Shown here piece by piece: positions 22,750 through 34,037 of a stretch of DNA of 64,000 nt; the first letter of the stretch is position 1; every line of letters starts with the position of its first letter. This DNA is from Escherichia coli. Lineage in GTDB: Bacteria; Pseudomonadota; Gammaproteobacteria; Enterobacterales; Enterobacteriaceae. The notes under the pieces are model-generated. The model did no database searches. It saw only the letters and a list, made by a program, of their open reading frames with translations, and had not been told where the DNA came from. The DNA lies in assembly GCF_050920415.1 (NCBI RefSeq), contig NZ_CP169309.1, one strand, 5' to 3'. Both the position numbers and the translations under genes were made by a program.

Positions 22750-23070
22750 TTAGCGGTTGATGGTTGCTTTTTTCGGGTCATACCATCTCGGCCATTCTTT
22801 CAGGAATGGGAATGAGTCGGGAGCGTGGTTCTTTTTGTACGATTTAAGCAGCCTTAACCGCTCTATCGCACACTCATAAACCTCTTGTTGCCCTGTAGTC
22901 ATCTCGGTCCATGAAAGGTGATCCATTGATAAGACAACGTTTTCAGCTTCTTTTATGAGGGCGTTTTTATTTCTCACCGCAGCAGCATGGCTGACAGAGC
23001 AATCCTGCCATATTCTTAAAAGCCAAATAGCTAAGCAGATAAAAAAAATGGTAGATAGCGATATATACAC
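22750..23070 (-). CDS. Hypothetical single-pass membrane protein (about 106 aa)
   Basis: GTG start 5 nt after AAGGAGG; N-terminal TM segment YISLSTIFFICLAIWLLRIW; longer 178-aa ORF in the track would overlap the + strand gene. Confidence 0.45.
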   Translation of the reverse strand: MYISLSTIFFICLAIWLLRIWQDCSVSHAAAVRNKNALIKEAENVVLSMDHLSWTEMTTGQQEVYECAIERLRLLKSYKKNHAPDSFPFLKEWPRWYDPKKATINR

Positions 23071-23100
23071 ACCAACCTCCTTAGTTTTGAGCAGGATACC

Positions 23101-23466
23101 ATGAAAAAAGTTAACATTGGAAACGTACCAAAGATGCTCGTACCGCTCTTTGAGAGCGGTACAATTGTGTTTTGTAGAGACTTTCCAGAATGGCAACGCC
23201 TGCATCAAAAACTTGGCGTTGACGTGCATGACTCGGACGCCAACGGAGCGTCTCATACAATGAGTAGCGAGAATGGTGTTTTGCATGTGATAGGCGTGTT
23301 CAATGGCAAACTATCTACTATTGCCCATGAGTGCGCTCACATGGCATTCGATATCTGCTCAAGGGTAGGTGTTGATGTTGAACCAGGAAGAGCCAACGAG
23401 ACTTACTGCTACTTAATGAGCAGGCTTGTTGAGTTCTGCGAGCGACATATCAAAAAGCCGGAGTGA
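23101..23466 (+). CDS. Putative zinc metallopeptidase (HExxH motif; ImmA/IrrE- or SprT-like)
   Basis: 121 aa; HECAH motif at residues 76-80. Confidence 0.45.
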   Translation: MKKVNIGNVPKMLVPLFESGTIVFCRDFPEWQRLHQKLGVDVHDSDANGASHTMSSENGVLHVIGVFNGKLSTIAHECAHMAFDICSRVGVDVEPGRANETYCYLMSRLVEFCERHIKKPE

Positions 23467-23479
23467 CCCGGCTTGATTA

Positions 23480-23659
23480 TTACTTTTTGCTGTCTGGAGT
23501 TCGCTTATCCAATACCCAGCCATGACCTGGCTTTGTTGTTGGTGGAAGCCTTTCGTTGTCCTTGACGGTGGCAAAATTGTCTTTCTTACCGCCGCGTGGG
23601 CCAACTTCTTGGTATATTCCGCCGTTTTTTCCTGTGTTTTCACCTGGTTTTTTCGCCAT
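23480..23659 (-). CDS. Hypothetical small Gly/Lys-rich protein (59 aa)
   Basis: ATG preceded by GAGG; MAKKPGENTGKNGGIYQEVGPRGGKKDNFATVKDNERLPPTTKPGHGWVLDKRTPDSKK. Confidence 0.45.
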   Translation of the reverse strand: MAKKPGENTGKNGGIYQEVGPRGGKKDNFATVKDNERLPPTTKPGHGWVLDKRTPDSKK

Positions 23660-23758
23660 GATATACCTCAACATACACCCGTTATTGGGCGATTAAATAT
23701 TGATCTCATTTTATAAGTAGTCAATATGGCCCAGGTAAATGCAAAAATTAACTCACCG

Positions 23759-24010
23759 TCAGGTGGTTTTTTTGTACAAATCCTTCAGCGTATCAAACAC
23801 CATCTTCTTAACAAGATCTGACTGCTCATCAGCGAGTCGTTCTGCATCGTCACGATATCCAGTCACAGGCGATGGTTTTGATAGAGCATCTTGGACGATT
23901 TGCAACAATTCTGAGTTCATTGATCTACCATTTGACTCTGCTCTGTATTTTAATTTTTCTCTTACTTCCAAAGGCATGCGGAAGTTAAAGTGCGGATCGT
24001 CTCTAGCCAT
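23759..24010 (-). CDS. mnt: Mnt repressor (ribbon-helix-helix)
   Basis: 83 aa; matches recalled P22 Mnt (MARDDPHFNFRMP.EVREKLK.RAE.NGRSMNSELLQIV..). Confidence 0.9.
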   Translation of the reverse strand: MARDDPHFNFRMPLEVREKLKYRAESNGRSMNSELLQIVQDALSKPSPVTGYRDDAERLADEQSDLVKKMVFDTLKDLYKKTT

Positions 24011-24033: not shown

Positions 24034-24291
24034 TTAACTTTCGTCTTTATTGTTGCCATACATGCATTTCAACTTCTCAACATCATGTTCAAGATCTATC
24101 AATCGTGATGCTATAGTTGCAAGGTCTAGTGCTTGAATGTGTTTATTTTTTTCGGTCCATGCTTCAAGTGCCGCGACCATCTCAGCATTTAATGAACGAG
24201 AATTAGCCTCAGCCAGTTCAATAAGACGTTCCTTTATCTCTACAGGAAGCCTCAGATTCACTTGAGGGTTTTTGTACTTACGATCAGACAT
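24034..24291 (-). CDS. Arc/Mnt-family ribbon-helix-helix regulator (second RHH protein)
   Basis: RHH N-terminus PQVNLRLPVEIKERLIELAEANSRSLNAEMV; directly upstream of mnt on the same strand. Confidence 0.7.
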   Translation of the reverse strand: MSDRKYKNPQVNLRLPVEIKERLIELAEANSRSLNAEMVAALEAWTEKNKHIQALDLATIASRLIDLEHDVEKLKCMYGNNKDES

Positions 24292-24396
24292 CGGCACATC
24301 CTGAATAATTTTTTACCACAGGATATGTAGGTATCTATTGACTATCAATGCGTACCTAAATACTATGTATGCGTACCACATACAACGGAGGATGCA

Positions 24397-24537
24397 ATGA
24401 AGGTAAAAACACTGCGTATGCCAGAGAAGTTAGAAAAAATCCTTGAAGAGAAAGCAAAGGAAGAGTGTCGCTCATTTAGCGCAGAAGTAATTAAACGGGT
24501 GATGGACAGCCTGAAGAGAGATGGGGTGGCGATATGA
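24397..24537 (+). CDS. arc: Arc-like repressor (46 aa RHH)
   Basis: MKVKTLRMPEKLEKILEEKAKEECRSFSAEVIKRVMDSLKRDG resembles P22 Arc as recalled; divergent from mnt. Confidence 0.7.
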   Translation: MKVKTLRMPEKLEKILEEKAKEECRSFSAEVIKRVMDSLKRDGVAI

Positions 24538-24716
24538 ATAAAGAAGATGGCTTTAAGTGCTCCTTCTGCTGAAAGCCTCAGCATGAATGTGCAATGTTGA
24601 TTCGCGCTAAAGCAGAGATATTTATCTGTAATGGTTGTGTATCTCTTTGCGTTGAAGCGATGGGGAAAGAGTTAAATTCTAGAAAAACAATGTTAGATGT
24701 GAGCATAAAACAGTGA
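24534..24716 (+). pseudogene. ClpX-type C4 zinc-finger small protein with in-frame TGA at 24570-24572
   Basis: MNKEDGFKCSFC-TGA-KPQHECAMLIRAKAEIFICNGCVSLCVEAMGKE.. parallels ClpX N-terminal zinc finger (CSFCGK...ICDECV..LC); TGA sits where ClpX has Gly. Confidence 0.5.
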
Positions 24717-24778
24717 AGCCCCAACTGCGGTAACAGTCAGGGCTTCGGTATCAACAAAACTTACGAGGTATTATTGAT

Positions 24779-25348
24779 ATGTCAAGCTTAGCAAAGTCAA
24801 CTGTAAATTGCACTAATAGCATCATCATTTCTGACGTCAAGATTCATATGGATTCAGAGGGTCGTTACTCGCTTAATGACCTTCATGTAGCGTCTGGAAA
24901 GGAGGAAAAACATCAGCCAGCTTTCTTCATGCGTAGAAATGAAACTATTGAATTGATTAATGAAATTTTTAATTCTGCGGATATGCAGAATAAGAATCCC
25001 GTCATTTCTAAGAAAGGTAGATATGGTGGAACATACGTGTGCAAGGAGCTTGTTTACTCCTACGCCATGTGGATTAGCGCAGCATTTGCGCTGAAGGTTA
25101 TCCGCGCATATGACGCAATGGTTACTGCCACACAAGAGAGGAAGGCTATTGGCGGTAAAACTTCAGTAGCTGAACGCACGCCGCTACGCGATGCAGTAAA
25201 CATGCTGGTAGGAAAGAAAGGACTTCGCTATGACGATGCATACAATATGGTTCATCAGCGTTTTGGTATTGACAGCATTGATGAACTTTCAATTGAACAA
25301 ATCCCGCTGGCCGTAGAGTACATCCACAGGGTAGTGCTTGAAGGTGAG
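24779..25348 (+). pseudogene. ant: Antirepressor Ant, 5' part (KilA-N domain), interrupted by IS2
   Basis: KilA-N-like N-terminus; reading frame runs into IS2 left end, which supplies the stop (TAG at 25349-25351). Confidence 0.75.
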
Positions 25349-25439
25349 TAGACTGGCCCCCTGAATCTCCAGACAACCAGTATCACTTAAATAAGTGATA
25401 GTCTTAATACTAGTTTTTAGACTAGTCATTGGAGAACAG

Positions 25440-25805
25440 ATGATTGATGTCTTAGGGCCGGAGAAACGCAGACGGCGTACCACACAGGAAAAGATCGCAA
25501 TTGTTCAGCAGAGCTTTGAACCGGGGATGACGGTCTCCCTCGTTGCCCGGCAACATGGTGTAGCAGCCAGCCAGTTATTTCTCTGGCGTAAGCAATACCA
25601 GGAAGGAAGTCTTACTGCTGTCGCCGCCGGAGAACAGGTTGTTCCTGCCTCTGAACTTGCTGCCGCCATGAAGCAGATTAAAGAACTCCAGCGCCTGCTC
25701 GGCAAGAAAACGATGGAAAATGAACTCCTCAAAGAAGCCGTTGAATATGGACGGGCAAAAAAGTGGATAGCGCACGCGCCCTTATTGCCCGGGGATGGGG
25801 AGTAA
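25440..25805 (+). CDS. insC: IS2 transposase OrfA
   Basis: [41 protein letters not shown].. matches InsC as recalled. Confidence 0.9.
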
Positions 25806-26668
25806 GCTTAGTCAGCCGTTGTCTCCGGGTGTCGCGTGCGCAGTTGCACGTCATTCTCAGACGAACCGATGACTGGATGGATGGCCGCCGCAGTCGTCAC
25901 ACTGATGATACGGATGTGCTTCTCCGTATACACCATGTTATCGGAGAGCTGCCCACGTATGGTTATCGTCGGGTATGGGCGCTGCTTCGCAGACAGGCAG
26001 AACTTGATGGTATGCCTGCGATCAATGCCAAACGTGTTTACCGGATCATGCGCCAGAATGCGCTGTTGCTTGAGCGAAAACCTGCTGTACCGCCATCGAA
26101 ACGGGCACATACAGGCAGAGTGGCCGTGAAAGAAAGCAATCAGCGATGGTGCTCTGACGGGTTCGAGTTCTGCTGTGATAACGGAGAGAGACTGCGTGTC
26201 ACGTTCGCGCTGGACTGCTGTGATCGTGAGGCACTGCACTGGGCGGTGACTACTGGCGGCTTCAACAGTGAAACAGTACAGGACGTCATGCTGGGAGCGG
26301 TGGAACGCCGCTTCGGCGACGATCTTCCGTCGTCTCCAGTGGAGTGGCTGACGGATAATGGTTCATGCTACCGGGCTAATGAAACACGCCAGTTCGCCCG
26401 GATGTTGGGACTTGAACCGAAGAACACGGCGGTGCGGAGTCCGGAGAGTAACGGAATAGCAGAGAGCTTCGTGAAAACGATAAAGCGTGACTACATCAGT
26501 ATCATGCCCAAACCAGACGGGTTAACGGCAGCAAAGAACCTTGCAGAGGCGTTCGAGCATTATAACGAATGGCATCCGCATAGTGCGCTGGGTTATCGCT
26601 CGCCACGGGAATATCTGCGGCAGCGGGCTTGTAATGGGTTAAGTGATAACAGATGTCTGGAAATATAG
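25763..26668 (+). CDS. insD: IS2 transposase OrfB (overlaps orfA in -1 frame)
   Basis: 301 aa; DDE transposase matching InsD as recalled. Confidence 0.9.
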
Positions 26669-26679
26669 GGGCAAATCCA

Positions 26680-27005
26680 GTGAGTTCATTGGCAAACAAG
26701 AGAAGAAAACCAACGAGCTTTCTGCAAAAGAAGCAAACAGCCTTGTATGGTTATGGGATTATGCCAACCGCTCACAGGCATTATTCCGCGAATTGTATCC
26801 GGCATTAAAACAAATTCAATCGAACTATTCCGGCAGATGTCATGACTGCGGTTATGAGTTCTCCCGTATTATCGATATAGCGAGAGACGTTTTAATTAAT
26901 CACACACGAGATGTTGATATCAATGAGCCAGACGGACCAACGAATCTTTCCGCATGGATGAGACTTAAGAATAAAGAATTACCTCCTTCAGTACATAATT
27001 ACTGA
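26680..27005 (+). pseudogene. ant: Antirepressor Ant, 3' part
   Basis: After removing IS2 and one TSD copy (1336 bp) this frame joins 24779..25348 in frame, reconstructing a 296-aa protein. Confidence 0.7.
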
Positions 27006-27105
27006 CAGATAACCAACGCAACGACCCAGCTTCGGCTGGGTTTTTTTATGCCCAAAATTCACCGTAGCCATGCTGCGGCGATTCCTTGTATCTGGAGCAA
27101 ATTAA

Positions 27106-29063
27106 ATGACAGACATTACAGCCAATGTTGTAGTGAGCATGCCTTCGCAACTCTTTACTATGGCCCGCTCTTTTAAAGCCGTAGCTAATGGTAAAATTTA
27201 TATCGGTAAAATTGACACTGACCCGGTAAATCCTGAAAACCAGATTCAGGTTTATGTAGAGAACGAAGACGGCTCTCACGTTCCTGTTTCGCAACCAATC
27301 ATCATTAACGCTGCTGGATATCCGGTATATAACGGACAGATTGCCAAATTCGTAACTGTGCAAGGCCATTCTATGGCTGTATATGATGCGTATGGTGCAC
27401 AGCAGTTCTATTTTCCTAATGTGCTGAAGTATGACCCTGATCAGTTTAAGCAGCAGTTAGAAAGCGATGCTGATGGAATGGGAGATGCATTAGTTACAGT
27501 TAAACAACCGTACACTGGTGCTACTTCTATTTCACAGCACATTAAAAATTCACAGGCTATAAGTGTTATTGATTTTGGCGCTACAATTGACGGAACGCTT
27601 CACCCTTTAAGCGAGATATTTTCAACACTATCAGCCGCTCAGATGGTATATCCATTTGTTTCATCTCTATCTCAATCTGTTGATTATGCTGCGCTTCAGT
27701 CCGCATGTAACACGGGAAAAACAGTGCTTATTCCAAAGGGAACTGGTTACTATAATTCAACTATTTTTCTGAAAAACTCCGTCAGGATTGTTGGAGAGGG
27801 AACTGATACAATAAATAGAGCGCAATCATTTATGTCTATTGTTGGTAATATTTCAGCCTTTGCTTTAGATCAAGGTGATTCACTATCGACAAAAATGATT
27901 CAGATTTTTATTGATGGTCTTTATATTTTCTATGATCCAGGAACCACACCAACGAATCCTGAAGATGATGGTGGGAAAATTGCATTTAATTTCTACTCGA
28001 CAATTCCAAATTCAACAAGCTTGGAAATGTCTGAAATTAAAAACTGTACAGTTCATGGTGCATGGTCATGCTTTAATGATCAGACTGGCACATACTTGAC
28101 AAAACTTACGAATGTGTGGGCCAGAAACTGCCATAATGGTTTTACAAAAGGAACTGGCACTACCATTCTGATGGAAAGATGTTATACATCTGGATGTATA
28201 TCACCATATCAGTTTGGTTCTGTCTTTGCAGCTACAATGATTAACTGTGCCATGGATGGATCAAATATTTCGTTAAACGCAGGTTCGCTTGGTGGGGCTG
28301 GCGTTCATGTTCTTAACACACATAGTTTTAACATTATTGGTTTTGATGCGGAGGGTAACACCATCTCTACAGATGGTTATGGAGAGGCAGCACTATTCCA
28401 TTTCGAAAATAGTAGTGGTGGCATTTCTGGCCTGACTGCACATCAGAACAGCATGCGAAGTGTTGCGCCAAGTGATGCTGGTGTAGTTTCCTACATCAGG
28501 GCGTCAGGTAGCAGCGATGTAAAATTGAGTCATCAGAAGATGATTTATCTGACACCAACACAGTTGCATATACTGGGTCTGGGTATCCCATCATGCTACA
28601 TGCAACTGACACAGCTAAAATAAGCGTCTTTAATAGCAGATTCAGGGCGACTACCACTGGTACCCCTGTCTTAAGTACGCTAAGTACTGGTGATGTATCA
28701 TGGTATGACTGCCCTAAAAAAACAGGACTTATCGTAGATGGTTATTCACAAATAACATCTAAGGAAGGATTGCAAACATCATGCTTCTATACCAGTAAAG
28801 GCTCTACTGCTGTTGCTGAAAATACTCCGACAACACTTTTCTCTCTACCAGATTCGCAAGGTACTTACATTATTAGCGTATGGGGGGCTGGAAGCGGAGA
28901 AAATTACGCATCTACACAACTGGCAATGTATGATGGAGATAAGCTAATTCTTGTTGCGTTAAAAATAGCAGCATTTCTTAGTTTTTCAGCAACAGGGAGA
29001 ATTGTAACCATTACAAGCCAGGGCACAGGCACTTTTAATTGGACCTACACAAAAATAGGTTAA
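27106..29063 (+). pseudogene. Tailspike with P22-like head-binding N-terminus and divergent receptor-binding domain; apparent 1-nt frameshift between 28512 and 28590
   Basis: N-terminus [11 protein letters not shown]...[33 protein letters not shown] matches P22 gp9 as recalled; frame 27106..28623 and frame 28512..29063 overlap, together about 652 codons. Confidence 0.65.
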
Positions 29064-29206: not shown

Positions 29207-30364
29207 TCACTCCACCTTTTCATCAATCCAATCCGCCCACCACTGCATCATTTCTCTGCGCTTATCGAGATACTGAGCATGGTTGTAAATTCCGCGCACA
29301 GATCCGCCGTTGGCATGTGCCAGTTGCACTTCAATAGCATCAGCAGGCCATTCGTGCTCGTTCATAATCGTGCTGAATTCATGCCTGAATCCGTGACCGC
29401 TTTCCAGACCTTCATAGCCGATTTGTTTGATCACAAGCAGTACCGCGTTCTCGCAGATTGGCTTCTTCTTATCGTTGCGCCCGGCAAAAACAAACTCTGA
29501 TACTGGTTTGGTGATTGAGCTTAGCGTAGTGAGAAGTTCAACCACCTGGTCCGACATCGGGACAACATGAATCTTGCGTCCCTTCATCACACTGGCGTCG
29601 ATAGTGATAATCCTGTTTTCAAAATCGACGTTCTTCCATTGCATGGAACGAAGCTCTTTCGTTCTTAGGGCTGTGTAGCGTAAAACTTTGGTCGCAATGA
29701 GCGATACGATACTTCCTGAAAATGTTGCCAGTGCTTTGTTGAATGCAGGGATCTGGTCTGCAGGAAGAAACGGGAAGTTCTTCTTGCGGTATCCCTTCAT
29801 GGCGTCAGCAAGGTCAGGTGCCGGGTTATATTTAGCCCTTCCGGTGACAATAGCGTAACGGAAAACCTCGCCGCATCTTCTGCGTGCTTTGTTGGCTCGC
29901 TCCATTGCACCGCGATCTTCAAATCTGCGGATTACTTCCAGAAGTTGCATCGGCTCAATATCCTGAATTTCAAGGCTGCCGATGATAGGTAAAATGTCGT
30001 CATCAAACATTTTGGCAAGTTCAGTTGCATAGCCTACTGACCAGACTTGCTTCTTGTGCTCGTACCATTCCTTGTAAATCGCACTAAAGGAATTGTTGTT
30101 AGACGAAGCCTTTTTCGCCTTTACCGGATCGATACCAACCGAGATGTCTTTCCTCGCAGTCCATGCTTTATCCCTTGCCTCCTGCAAAGTCATAAGCGGA
30201 TATTTTCCGACGGTCAGGATTTTCTCCTTACCGTCAATCTTGTAGCGAAGCTGCCATACCTTTTTCCCTGACACAGGGACATAAAGGTACAGGCCATTAC
30301 CATCGAGAAGGCGGTATGGTTTTTCTTTCGGCTTTGCTGCTTCAATCTGCTTAACGGTGAGCAT
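29207..30364 (-). CDS. intS: Tyrosine integrase (IntS-like)
   Basis: MLTVKQIEAAKPKEKPYRLLDGNGLYLYVP.. matches recalled K-12 IntS; start taken at Met13 of the listed ORF. Confidence 0.9.
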   Translation of the reverse strand: MLTVKQIEAAKPKEKPYRLLDGNGLYLYVPVSGKKVWQLRYKIDGKEKILTVGKYPLMTLQEARDKAWTARKDISVGIDPVKAKKASSNNNSFSAIYKEWYEHKKQVWSVGYATELAKMFDDDILPIIGSLEIQDIEPMQLLEVIRRFEDRGAMERANKARRRCGEVFRYAIVTGRAKYNPAPDLADAMKGYRKKNFPFLPADQIPAFNKALATFSGSIVSLIATKVLRYTALRTKELRSMQWKNVDFENRIITIDASVMKGRKIHVVPMSDQVVELLTTLSSITKPVSEFVFAGRNDKKKPICENAVLLVIKQIGYEGLESGHGFRHEFSTIMNEHEWPADAIEVQLAHANGGSVRGIYNHAQYLDKRREMMQWWADWIDEKVE

Positions 30365-30525
30365 GGGTAAAAATCCGGTGGGTAAAATTATTTTATCCAC
30401 TTTTTACCCGTCATGGTGTGCGGCTGTCAACGATCTGACGCGAACCATGACGAACTGTGAATCTACGGAAGGCTTGATATTCAGGGGATTTTGCGGACTG
30501 GTACGGATGGGAGCGAACTGATAAA

Positions 30526-30600
30526 TGGTGTCCCCTGCAGGAATCGAACCTGCAATTAGCCCTTAGGAGGGGCTCGTTATATCCATTTAACTAAGAGGAC
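30526..30600 (-). tRNA. argW: tRNA-Arg (argW), prophage integration site
   Basis: Reverse complement reads GTCCTCTTAGTTAAATGGATATAACGAGCCCCTCCTAAGGGCTAATTGCAGGTTCGATTCCTGCAGGGGACACCA. Confidence 0.95.
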
Positions 30601-30675
30601 AATGCGGCATGAGTATACCCGCTAATGCTCAGCGGGGTAAGTACACTGCCGCTCGATTGCTTAAACCCTCGCCAT

Positions 30676-31608
30676 TTATGCCGGGTTTTTATCATTTTTC
30701 TTAATGTTTTCCGCACGTTCTGCTTTTTGTCGTGCTTCTGCTTTGCGCTTGTTGCTCATGTCGTTACGGATCTGTGCATGACTCATTAACGCGAATATAA
30801 AGGTGCCGCCGCAGATGTTTCCTGCCAGAGTAGGCAGCGCGAAGGGCCAGATGAAATCGCTCCAGTGCAGCGTGCCGTTAAATACCAGATAGAGGATTTC
30901 TACAGAACCGACAACGATGTGGGTGGTGTCTCCGAGGGCGATAAGCCAGGTCATTAATATAATCACTACAATCTTTGCCGCACCCGCTGCAGGAAACATC
31001 CATACCATAGTGGCGATCAGCCAGCCGGAAATGATCGCGTTGGCAAACATCTCACTGGGGGTGTTCTTCATCACATCCATGCCGATTTTTACAAATGCAT
31101 CGCGAGTTTCTTCATTAAAGATAGGCATATATTCAAATGCCCACGCCGCAATACCTGTCCCGAGAATATTCCCCAGCAGCACGACGCCCCATAACCGCAT
31201 AAGTAAGCCGACGTTGCTCATTGTCGGTTTTTGCATGACGGGTAGTACCGCAGTCACGGTGTTTTCGGTAAATAATTGCTGGCGGGCCATAATGACGATA
31301 ATAAAGCCAAAGGTATAACCGAGATTCTCCAGCAAGAAACTGCCCGGCACGCCTTCCAGTTCGACATGAAATATCCCTTTTGCCAGTAGTGAAGCGCCCA
31401 TCGACAGACCCGCCGCAATGGCTGACCACAGTAGCGCCATTGCGTCGCGTTCCAGCTCTTTTTCACCATCCTGGCGGATATGTTCATGAATTGCCATCGC
31501 CCGGGAGGGGAGTCGGTCTTCATCTATTTCTATTTTTTTGCCGCGTTCTTTTTCTTCGCTCTCAACTTCAATTTCGTCGCTGTGTTGATCAATTTTGTCG
31601 TTGTCCAT
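30676..31608 (-). CDS. yfdC: Formate/nitrite-transporter-family inner membrane protein
   Basis: 310 aa polytopic membrane protein; synteny with K-12. Confidence 0.8.
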   Translation of the reverse strand: MDNDKIDQHSDEIEVESEEKERGKKIEIDEDRLPSRAMAIHEHIRQDGEKELERDAMALLWSAIAAGLSMGASLLAKGIFHVELEGVPGSFLLENLGYTFGFIIVIMARQQLFTENTVTAVLPVMQKPTMSNVGLLMRLWGVVLLGNILGTGIAAWAFEYMPIFNEETRDAFVKIGMDVMKNTPSEMFANAIISGWLIATMVWMFPAAGAAKIVVIILMTWLIALGDTTHIVVGSVEILYLVFNGTLHWSDFIWPFALPTLAGNICGGTFIFALMSHAQIRNDMSNKRKAEARQKAERAENIKKNDKNPA

Positions 31609-31902
31609 GGTCTCTTCTCTTGAATTAGCACGTATAGCTAAAGCGTAGCGGCTTTTTTGCTCGCAACTGGCGGGAGTTACTCTGAAAATGTAGAAAAGGC
31701 TGTGTTTGCCTTTTTCTGTTTCTATAGAATCAAGTAGCCTACAGGGCGTCGATTACCAGGCTATGATCAAATCAGCAAATCAGGGCGTCTGGACATCAGT
31801 TGACGTGCTGTTACAATCGCCCACACCTAAACAGGCGGATACGGTATCGTTCCGTCATGGATGGCAAACTGCATAAGCCATAAAAAAAACAGGGAGACAT
31901 TT

Positions 31903-32658
31903 ATGAAGCTTCGCCTGTCGGCGCTTGCTCTTGGAACTACGCTTCTGGTGGGGTGTGCGAGTTCCGGTACAGATCAGCAAGGGCGTTCTGACCCATTAGA
32001 AGGGTTCAACCGCACCATGTACAACTTCAACTTCAATGTATTAGACCCGTATATTGTTCGACCGGTCGCAGTCGCCTGGCGTGATTATGTTCCGCAACCG
32101 GCGCGTAACGGTTTGAGCAACTTTACCGGCAACCTTGAAGAACCTGCGGTGATGGTTAACTACTTCTTGCAGGGCGACCCTTATCAGGGGATGGTCCACT
32201 TTACCCGCTTTTTCCTGAACACTATTTTGGGGATGGGCGGCTTTATTGATGTTGCGGGGATGGCGAACCCGAAACTGCAACGGACTGAACCTCACCGCTT
32301 CGGTAGTACGCTTGGTCATTATGGCGTGGGGTATGGGCCGTACGTACAATTACCGTTCTACGGAAGCTTCACGCTGCGTGATGACGGCGGTGATATGGCG
32401 GATGGTCTTTACCCGGTACTTTCCTGGCTGACCTGGCCGATGTCCGTGGGTAAATGGACGCTTGAAGGTATCGAAACCCGTGCGCAACTGCTGGATTCCG
32501 ACGGCCTGCTGCGTCAGTCGTCCGACCCATACATTATGGTGCGCGAAGCGTACTTCCAGCGTCATGATTTCATCGCCAATGGCGGCGAACTCAAACCGCA
32601 GGAAAACCCGAACGCGCAAGCGATTCAGGATGAGTTAAAAGATATCGATTCTGAATAA
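31903..32658 (+). CDS. mlaA: Outer-membrane lipoprotein MlaA (VacJ)
   Basis: Start at ATG 31903 (MKLRLSALALGTTLLVGCASS lipoprotein signal); 251 aa. Confidence 0.9.
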   Translation: MKLRLSALALGTTLLVGCASSGTDQQGRSDPLEGFNRTMYNFNFNVLDPYIVRPVAVAWRDYVPQPARNGLSNFTGNLEEPAVMVNYFLQGDPYQGMVHFTRFFLNTILGMGGFIDVAGMANPKLQRTEPHRFGSTLGHYGVGYGPYVQLPFYGSFTLRDDGGDMADGLYPVLSWLTWPMSVGKWTLEGIETRAQLLDSDGLLRQSSDPYIMVREAYFQRHDFIANGGELKPQENPNAQAIQDELKDIDSE

Positions 32659-32668
32659 GAAACAAATA

Positions 32669-32698
32669 AAAAGGTGAGTCGCAAAACTCACCTTTTTT
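32669..32698 (+). terminator. Rho-independent terminator after mlaA
   Basis: AAAGGTGAGT..ACTCACCTTTTTT hairpin. Confidence 0.7.
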
Positions 32699-32837
32699 GT
32701 TGTTATCCCTCAATTACCACAAGTAAAAGGAGACAAACCGACAATGACCCGGACGAATTATGTAAAAATACTGATGTTCGTCACTGACTGTTTCCGATAT
32801 TCAGACGTTGAAAAATCAAAAAACTGGACAAATAATT

Positions 32838-34037
32838 TTAATTATCATCAAAATTAACACCCAACGCAGAGAGTTGTTTAATTTCACTTTGATATTTCAT
32901 CTGGCGATTTTGAAGTCTTTTTTCAACTTTATCTTCGATTTCCTTAAACTGTTTATATTCATTTTGAGAGTTGTCAACGTCAACTTCGTTAGCGAATAAA
33001 GTAGAAATTATTTCTTTTACATTATCGCGTCTAAATTTTGCATCGTCCACTTGAAAATTGTATCTTATTGCTCGACCTAAACGTTTAAAAACTTCGTTAG
33101 GTTCTCTCAGTCTTTCCCCGTTGAGCTCGTTTACAACCTGATGATCGGAACCTGTTGCGAATGATTCTGCCATGATAGCTTTACTGCTTTCAAACCACGC
33201 TGAAGCATTCCTGGCGTTTTCACTACAATATTGGGTGAGACTATCACCATTAATACGAATTCCTCTTTGAATGTGGTAGTCGTCCTGATCGTAGTAACCG
33301 AGAGATAAGTAATCATTTCCGTTTTTATTTTTAATTACAATAGCGAGAGAGTCGCCTTTTTTATCTTTACCGTACCAGGTAAATAAGTCCGTTGGTTCGC
33401 TTTTCCCGCTCTCATCAAGTTTCGTTACCGTATGTCTGAGTTTGTGTGATATTTTATCGAAGATAAAACCAGGATTTCCATCATATATTTCTTTTATTGC
33501 GCTGAAGATCATTTCCTTGTTATGGATATCATGAGTATTCTCTACTACATTTTCACTGATGATGGTTTGACCGACTTTTTTGTTTTCATCGTTCGCAGGT
33601 GATTTTGTTGGTTCTTGATTATTAATACCAATAATACCATCATCAGTATATTCAGCATTATTTATATCATCATGAGTCTTCTCAACTATGTTGTCATTAA
33701 TGATAGTACGGACGAGTTCTTTGTCTTTATAGTTCGCAGATAATTTTATTGGTTCTTGGTTGTCGATACCAATAGTAATATAGTCTGTATCATTGGAGCC
33801 AATATCAATATAAGTAACTGAGGAATTATTGATAATTATTCTATCAAGTTCACCGGTTCCTCGTATGGCATTTTTTATAAGCTCAAGTAGATGTTTAATA
33901 CAGGTACTTATTCCTTCCTTGCCATTAAAAAGGTTTTTGAACTCTTGTACTAATCCATTAACTTCATTATTGTTATTTTCATTGGTGGATTCTGTGTAAG
34001 TTGGGCAGGTATTGTTGATTGAAACAGCTGGTAGCAT
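32838..34037 (-). CDS. yfdF: Uncharacterised protein YfdF-like
   Basis: 399 aa, Asn/Asp-rich; position between mlaA and fadL. Confidence 0.6.
   Translation of the reverse strand: MLPAVSINNTCPTYTESTNENNNNEVNGLVQEFKNLFNGKEGISTCIKHLLELIKNAIRGTGELDRIIINNSSVTYIDIGSNDTDYITIGIDNQEPIKLSANYKDKELVRTIINDNIVEKTHDDINNAEYTDDGIIGINNQEPTKSPANDENKKVGQTIISENVVENTHDIHNKEMIFSAIKEIYDGNPGFIFDKISHKLRHTVTKLDESGKSEPTDLFTWYGKDKKGDSLAIVIKNKNGNDYLSLGYYDQDDYHIQRGIRINGDSLTQYCSENARNASAWFESSKAIMAESFATGSDHQVVNELNGERLREPNEVFKRLGRAIRYNFQVDDAKFRRDNVKEIISTLFANEVDVDNSQNEYKQFKEIEDKVEKRLQNRQMKYQSEIKQLSALGVNFDDN

Follow-up and report, generated by a model that had tools for sequence, protein, structure and literature searches.

The DNA analysed here is a 64-kb stretch of Escherichia coli (hereafter the window) that carries a P22-like prophage at argW. 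Genes for terminase, portal, scaffold, coat and DNA-injection proteins lie upstream of the immI region. Most of these upstream genes are as long as their counterparts in the functional phage APC_JM3.2; the differences concern the tail and DNA-injection proteins that come after gp10. Beyond immI are the tailspike gene and, further on, the integrase gene, tRNA-Arg(CCT) (argW, 30526..30600) and yfdC. For comparison we used contigs from other genomes, of which two are the most informative. The prophages of L010 (GCA_000194575.2) and L014 are 98.8-100% identical to the window on both sides of the antirepressor gene ant, and that of L010 occupies the same argW/yfdC locus as the prophage described here.

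The immI region of the prophage

The order of the Mnt-like genes, arc, sar, ant, terminator and tailspike gene agrees in every feature with the annotated P22 record, and the orientation and the location, past the DNA-injection genes and up to the tailspike gene, are the same too. This layout is that of the 'ant moron' described in P22-like phages (PMC2629481). On the minus strand, mnt (23759..24010) encodes 83 residues, 78 of which are identical in P22 Mnt. A second Mnt-like ribbon-helix-helix gene (24034..24297, minus strand, 87 aa) adjoins the promoter region, in which promoter-like sites on both strands overlap and diverge (24320..24366), as do Pant and Pmnt in P22. The plus-strand site is TTGACT-17-TACTAT (24338..24366) and the minus-strand site TTGATA-17-TATCCT (24348..24320). 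Both match the consensus, and the P22 layout suggests that they function as promoters. An imperfect palindrome at 24324-41/24345-62 is a candidate operator.

An arc-like ribbon-helix-helix repressor gene follows on the plus strand (24397..24537, 46 aa); a Pfam Arc match was obtained on the identical arc gene of L008, L010 and L014. The antisense RNA sar lies on the minus strand directly before ant (24712..24777; Rfam RF00262, score 62.8 bits, gathering score 43). It ends two bases before the ant ATG, has a terminator hairpin at 24746..24715 and shares with P22 sar an identical core of 36 nt. After ant, an intrinsic terminator (27023..27042, plus strand) stands at the same position as the annotated ant terminator of P22.

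The region departs from P22 immI in several ways. Arc has 46 residues and is diverged, one more Mnt-like gene is present, and the first ∼126 residues of Ant are replaced by a KilA-N domain. In E. coli LR-64-1 (L004), the small ORF between arc and ant (24534..24716 in the window) encodes a 60-aa 'ClpX C4-type zinc finger protein'. In the prophage described here, codon 13 of this ORF has changed from GGA to TGA (24570..24572; CSFC*KPQ). In addition, the P22-type Mnt operator ATAGGTCCACGGTGGACCTGT was found nowhere in the 64-kb window when up to three mismatches were allowed, although a P22-like Mnt is encoded. The N-terminal DNA-reading arm of the distal Mnt is identical to that of P22 Mnt, and this P22-like Mnt may be an orphan acting on incoming phages.

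To the left of immI, comparison with the otherwise 99.5%-identical L010 and L014 shows a replacement of the segment 23088..23822, which separates the gp16-like injection gene from mnt. The replaced segment holds a 64-aa ORF (23480..23674, minus strand, phrog_3202), and a 178-aa ORF (22750..23286, minus strand, phrog_10450) starts within it.

To the right, the tailspike gene (27106..29063, plus strand), the homologue of P22 gene 9, is frameshifted by a deletion of 1 nt near 28519. Compared with the near-isogenic L010, in which the product has 652 aa, one T of a TT is missing, so that a frameshifted ORF of 505 aa and a remnant ORF of 156 aa (28593..29063) are left. Because of this frameshift, the prophage is probably unable to make infectious particles, whatever the state of ant. 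At 28555..28670, 17 clustered SNPs have the look of a small patch of recombination. The chromosomal flank on the side of yfdC and mlaA (30309..33000) is 99.7% identical to L010, whereas its identity to several E. coli genomes is only about 96%. The value of about 96% may mean that the host comes from a divergent lineage, or that the region is recombinant.

The IS2 element and its empty site

A complete IS2 element of 1331 bp (25349..26679, plus strand), the only copy in the 64-kb window, lies within ant, with IRL at the left and its transposase genes co-oriented with ant. It comprises insC (OrfA/TnpA; 25440..25805, plus strand), the 121-aa product of which is identical to InsC1 of K-12, and insD (OrfB, the DDE transposase part; 25763..26668, plus strand), the 301-aa product of which has the single change N186D from K-12. 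The two genes are joined by a programmed -1 frameshift at AAAAAAG (the A6G site; 25757..25763, plus strand). The initial annotation had described the element as complete with both genes intact, and this description stood up to alignment. Compared with the annotated IS2A of E. coli K-12 MG1655 (insC1/insD1), the element is gapless and identical at 1326 of the 1331 positions, with 5 mismatches, identical termini and both ORFs open. In NCBIfam, the IS2 TnpA model scored 276 (curated cut-off 229) and the IS2 TnpB model 725 (cut-off 597), both above their thresholds. Since its ORFs and ends are intact, and a copy 100% identical to it is present in E. coli MFDS1022581, this IS2 is apparently active.

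The element is flanked by a perfect direct repeat of GTGAG, also reported in the initial annotation, which can be read from the sequence at 25344..25348 on the left and at 26680..26684 on the right. The 1331 bp exactly between the two copies begin with TAGACTGGCCCCC and end with GGGGCAAATCCA; the termini can also be given as TAGACTGGCCCCCTGAATCTCCAGACA at the start and TGTCTGGAAATATAGGGGCAAATCCA at the end. The probability that a 5-bp flanking repeat would arise by chance is about 1/1024. There is no sixth matching base on the left side. The base after the target (T) is the same as the first base of IS2, so that a repeat of 6 bp could formally be drawn; we set it at 5 bp because the canonical ends of IS2 fix it, as they do at IS2A of K-12. 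We checked the 5-bp rule on the K-12 reference copy itself, which is flanked by ATTAC/ATTAC, and the duplication found here therefore fits IS2. In length, termini, A6G site and size of duplication the two elements are the same, and only their location differs.

The insertion follows codon 190 of ant and divides the gene into two fragments on the plus strand. The 5' fragment (codons 1-190, 24779..25348) encodes KilA-N (aa 19-114) and, of the P22-Ant-like part, the initial 64 residues. Its ORF runs to 25351 and stops at the TAG of 25349-25351, with which IS2 begins; the element does supply the stop, as had been proposed. The 3' fragment (26685..27005) consists of codons 191-296 and the stop codon, and encodes P22_AR_C (aa 196-268 of the rebuilt protein). 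It lacks a credible start codon of its own; the sole in-frame start is a GTG inside IS2, which gives an ORF of 26643..27005. When IS2 and one copy of the repeat are taken out, 24779..25348 and 26685..27005 join in frame into 891 nt encoding 296 aa, in agreement with the length given in the initial annotation. The rebuilt protein is an exact public-database entry (P0001, 'MULTISPECIES: P22AR C-terminal domain-containing protein [Escherichia]') and belongs to a cluster of 429 proteins, other members of which are named 'phage antirepressor Ant'.

Among the contigs that encode exactly this protein we found L010 and L014, in which the gene is uninterrupted, differs from the rebuilt ORF at none of the 891 nt and holds GTGAG once. 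GTGAG is single-copy in the empty site of L005 too. In a blastn comparison of the window with L010, the alignment breaks exactly at 25349 and 26680. The target repeat together with an exact empty site puts the insertion beyond reasonable doubt, barring misassembly. That an assembler had wrongly placed a multi-copy IS2 here is conceivable in principle, as IS2 is highly repeated in E. coli and the junction turned up in none of the other genomes, plasmids, species representatives and metagenomes that we searched. Against such an artefact, both junctions lie at the exact canonical termini of IS2, and GTGAG is duplicated here and single-copy in the empty site, a duplication that a misjoin would not create. 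We regard misassembly as extremely improbable.

Neither fragment of ant has any nucleotide change from the uninterrupted allele and the IS is undecayed, which indicates that the event is recent. The initial annotation had drawn the same conclusion from the intact duplication; identity of both fragments to the empty-site allele supports recency better than the duplication alone. The small ORF that precedes ant has its nonsense codon in L010 and L014 as well, so that this lesion predates the insertion of IS2.

A mosaic antirepressor gene

The initial annotation had identified the interrupted gene as a KilA-N antirepressor close in length to Ant of P22 (300 aa), a reading that holds with one qualification, the composite nature of the protein. 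On the rebuilt protein, Pfam found KilA-N (PF04383) at aa 19-114 with an E-value of 3.4e-19 and P22_AR_C at aa 196-268 with an E-value of 2e-28. Residues 127-296 are 84% identical to residues 131-300 of P22 Ant (E 1e-108). Residues 1-126 have no similarity to P22 Ant, and KilA-N stands there in place of the P22-type N-terminal domain. The gene is therefore a mosaic in which a KilA-N head is joined to the C-terminal 170 residues of a P22-type Ant, and not a full-length orthologue of P22 ant. Comparison with P22 Ant and Sf6 Ant had been proposed as a check. P22 provided the match over 170 residues, whereas Sf6 is an unsuitable comparator as it is without the ant region (PMC2629481).

The closest phage protein is Ant of Salmonella phage vB_SemP_Emek, which is 97.3% identical over the full length. 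The ant gene of Emek and the E. coli alleles (P0001; L004, L005 and L007-L014) encode the same 296-aa arrangement of KilA-N and P22_AR_C, and all of them are intact, in contrast to the IS2-split gene of the window. Among 5426 complete E. coli genomes, the 3' module is present in about 1100 with varied 5' modules, which makes it the common core of these genes, and the full-length KilA-N allele is present in 31. IS2 has inserted just before this P22_AR_C module. Recombination breakpoints in ant across E. coli cluster near nt 394-403, 520-535, 558 and 576 of the rebuilt ORF. This zone of nt 394-576 corresponds to about 25172..25348 plus 26685..26690 of the window, and the IS2 site (nt 570) lies inside it, at the edge of P22_AR_C.

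Could the gene encode something other than an antirepressor, so that no such function was lost? It might be a KilA-N DNA-binding regulator with another role, or a relic that was already defective. The N-terminal third of the protein is unrelated to P22 Ant. PHROGs returned anti-repressor families for the central and C-terminal parts, and the best family, phrog_2812, is without assigned function; NCBIfam gave no model for the rebuilt product. The annotators of Emek marked the same gene '(Defective?)'. On the other hand, the 84% identity over 170 residues is to an experimentally defined antirepressor, and the gene stands at the position of ant in P22 with sar, arc and mnt in place. Genes for Ant are also modular, and several alternative N-terminal domains are found on the same C-terminal module. 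Finally, the full-length ORF is kept in the 31 complete E. coli genomes and in many Salmonella, with mainly synonymous divergence. A role other than antirepression is thus unlikely. By analogy with P22, the mosaic Ant would bind and inactivate a c2-type prophage repressor.

Comparison with relatives indicates that the intact gene is under purifying selection. The rebuilt ant differs from that of L004 by 10 nt and 1 aa, and from that of Emek by 26 nt and 8 aa, so that the differences are mostly synonymous. We based this comparison on L004 and Emek, which were not selected for their protein sequence. An alternative argument, from 20 variant sites that are all synonymous in the loci encoding the exact protein, was dropped as circular since these loci had been chosen for an identical protein. 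As a separate observation, PADLOC returned a weak partial match of the KilA-N region to PDC-S22.

Proposed course and likely consequences of the insertion

Very probably, IS2 transposed into codon 190/191 of the mosaic immI ant gene of this P22-like argW prophage and duplicated GTGAG, and the outcome is most likely a null allele. In the course that we propose, a complete and apparently active IS2 would have entered the antirepressor gene, with duplication of the 5-bp target. Translation from Pant would then halt after residue 190 at the TAG supplied by IS2, and the P22_AR_C module, the part common to most E. coli Ant variants, would be cut off. It is the loss of this conserved C-terminal module that makes a null allele most likely. 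The prophage would thereby be deprived of a protein able to inactivate its own repressor or those of other lambdoid phages; mnt, arc and sar are still in place. The 190-aa fragment keeps the promoter, the ribosome-binding site and KilA-N, and could retain some activity; our search of the literature and of structures found no solved structure or domain-mapping paper that places repressor binding in one half of Ant.

The identity and boundaries of IS2, the target duplication, the empty site, and the homology and surroundings of ant are shown directly by the sequences; loss of antirepressor activity is inferred from them, and induction, cross-induction and, through polarity, the tailspike gene may be affected. 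In P22, late transcription must cross the ant region to reach the tailspike gene (PMC2629481). A simple scan of IS2 for intrinsic terminators in the direction of the tailspike gene detected none. Polarity may in any case be of no consequence, as the tailspike gene is itself frameshifted. In P22, Ant acts against c2 and against the repressors of several other phages, but neither prophage induction nor lytic or lysogenic growth is reported to require it (PMC3121763). The claim of the initial annotation that loss of Ant would change the induction behaviour of the prophage was therefore overstated, all the more as the tailspike gene is frameshifted too.

To see whether the insertion occurs elsewhere, we searched several collections. 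By megablast, the region 24300..27500 had no match covering at least 80% of it at any place in the 5426 complete E. coli genomes, and the junction was in none of them. The left-junction 30-mer GTGCTTGAAGGTGAGTAGACTGGCCCCCTG had no exact occurrence in the GTDB species representatives or in the JGI metagenomes, and no match in the plasmid collection spanned the junction region. Neither the truncated product of 190 aa nor the 120-aa ORF that is a hybrid of IS2 and ant had an exact-protein record. As NCBI labels such genes pseudogenes, and assemblies of short reads are interrupted at copies of an IS, the absence of the truncated proteins is weak evidence.

The top matches to IS2 with its flanks were considered as the same insertion and rejected, as their IS2 or IS2-like copies lie in or before the tailspike gene and not in ant. 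In other P22-like prophages of E. coli, L001 (3530..4860), L002 (4722..6052) and L003 (2898..4228) carry IS2 (99.8%) or IS2-like (95%) elements, either inside the tailspike gene or in the spacer between ant and tailspike gene. The idea of an IS2 hot spot in the ant-tailspike region was dropped. About six genomes, two of them clonal, have such insertions, which by a rough estimate is close to what chance would give, since E. coli genomes carry a median of four copies of IS2.

Was the insertion selected? A knockout of ant might shield the host from self-induction or cross-induction, or might rescue a phage in which the control of Ant had failed. The ant gene is degraded in the phages HK620 and Scho1, and rapid gene flux is described for the 'ant moron' (PMC2629481). 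The action of P22 Ant on the repressors of several other phages (PMC3121763) would also favour selection. Within the prophage, the other lesions, namely the frameshift in the tailspike gene and the nonsense codon in the small ORF before ant, point in the same direction, and so does a P22-like Mnt encoded without a P22-type operator. Weighing against selection, the insertion is a one-off, as none of the 5426 E. coli genomes has a parallel insertion in ant, the mnt-like and arc genes look intact, and the IS2 insertions nearby in other strains occur at roughly chance frequency. We consider selection of the insertion rather improbable. The case resembles HK620 and Scho1 in the loss of ant from an otherwise P22-like late region (PMC2629481), and differs in that the gene described here is perfect in sequence except for one clean IS insertion.

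More far-reaching consequences can be imagined. IS2 lies in sense orientation in a unit that would be silent in the lysogen (through Mnt, Arc and sar) and crossed by antiterminated late transcription, which might tie expression of the transposase to derepression or induction. The 190-aa KilA-N fragment might act as a new regulator or as a dominant-negative protein, or the loss of ant might be adaptive, with the prophage locked in and co-resident prophages spared from cross-induction. We would give these scenarios very little chance of being right. Our preferred reading remains a recent transposition that most likely inactivated ant.

Disruption of a prophage gene by an IS is a textbook event. 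What is new is only the position of this insertion, as IS2 and the rebuilt ant are both exactly known sequences. It is an ordinary kind of prophage damage that matters little beyond correct annotation: the ORFs 24779..25351 and 26643..27005 should be described as one ant pseudogene split by IS2 and not as two small genes. Seen in this one sequence and in none of the other collections searched, the insertion is a clean strain-specific marker. Together with the frameshift in the tailspike gene, it portrays a young P22-like prophage at the start of decay. As a natural and most likely null allele of ant, the gene could also be used to ask what role Ant plays in polylysogens, a question described as open in the literature (PMC3121763).
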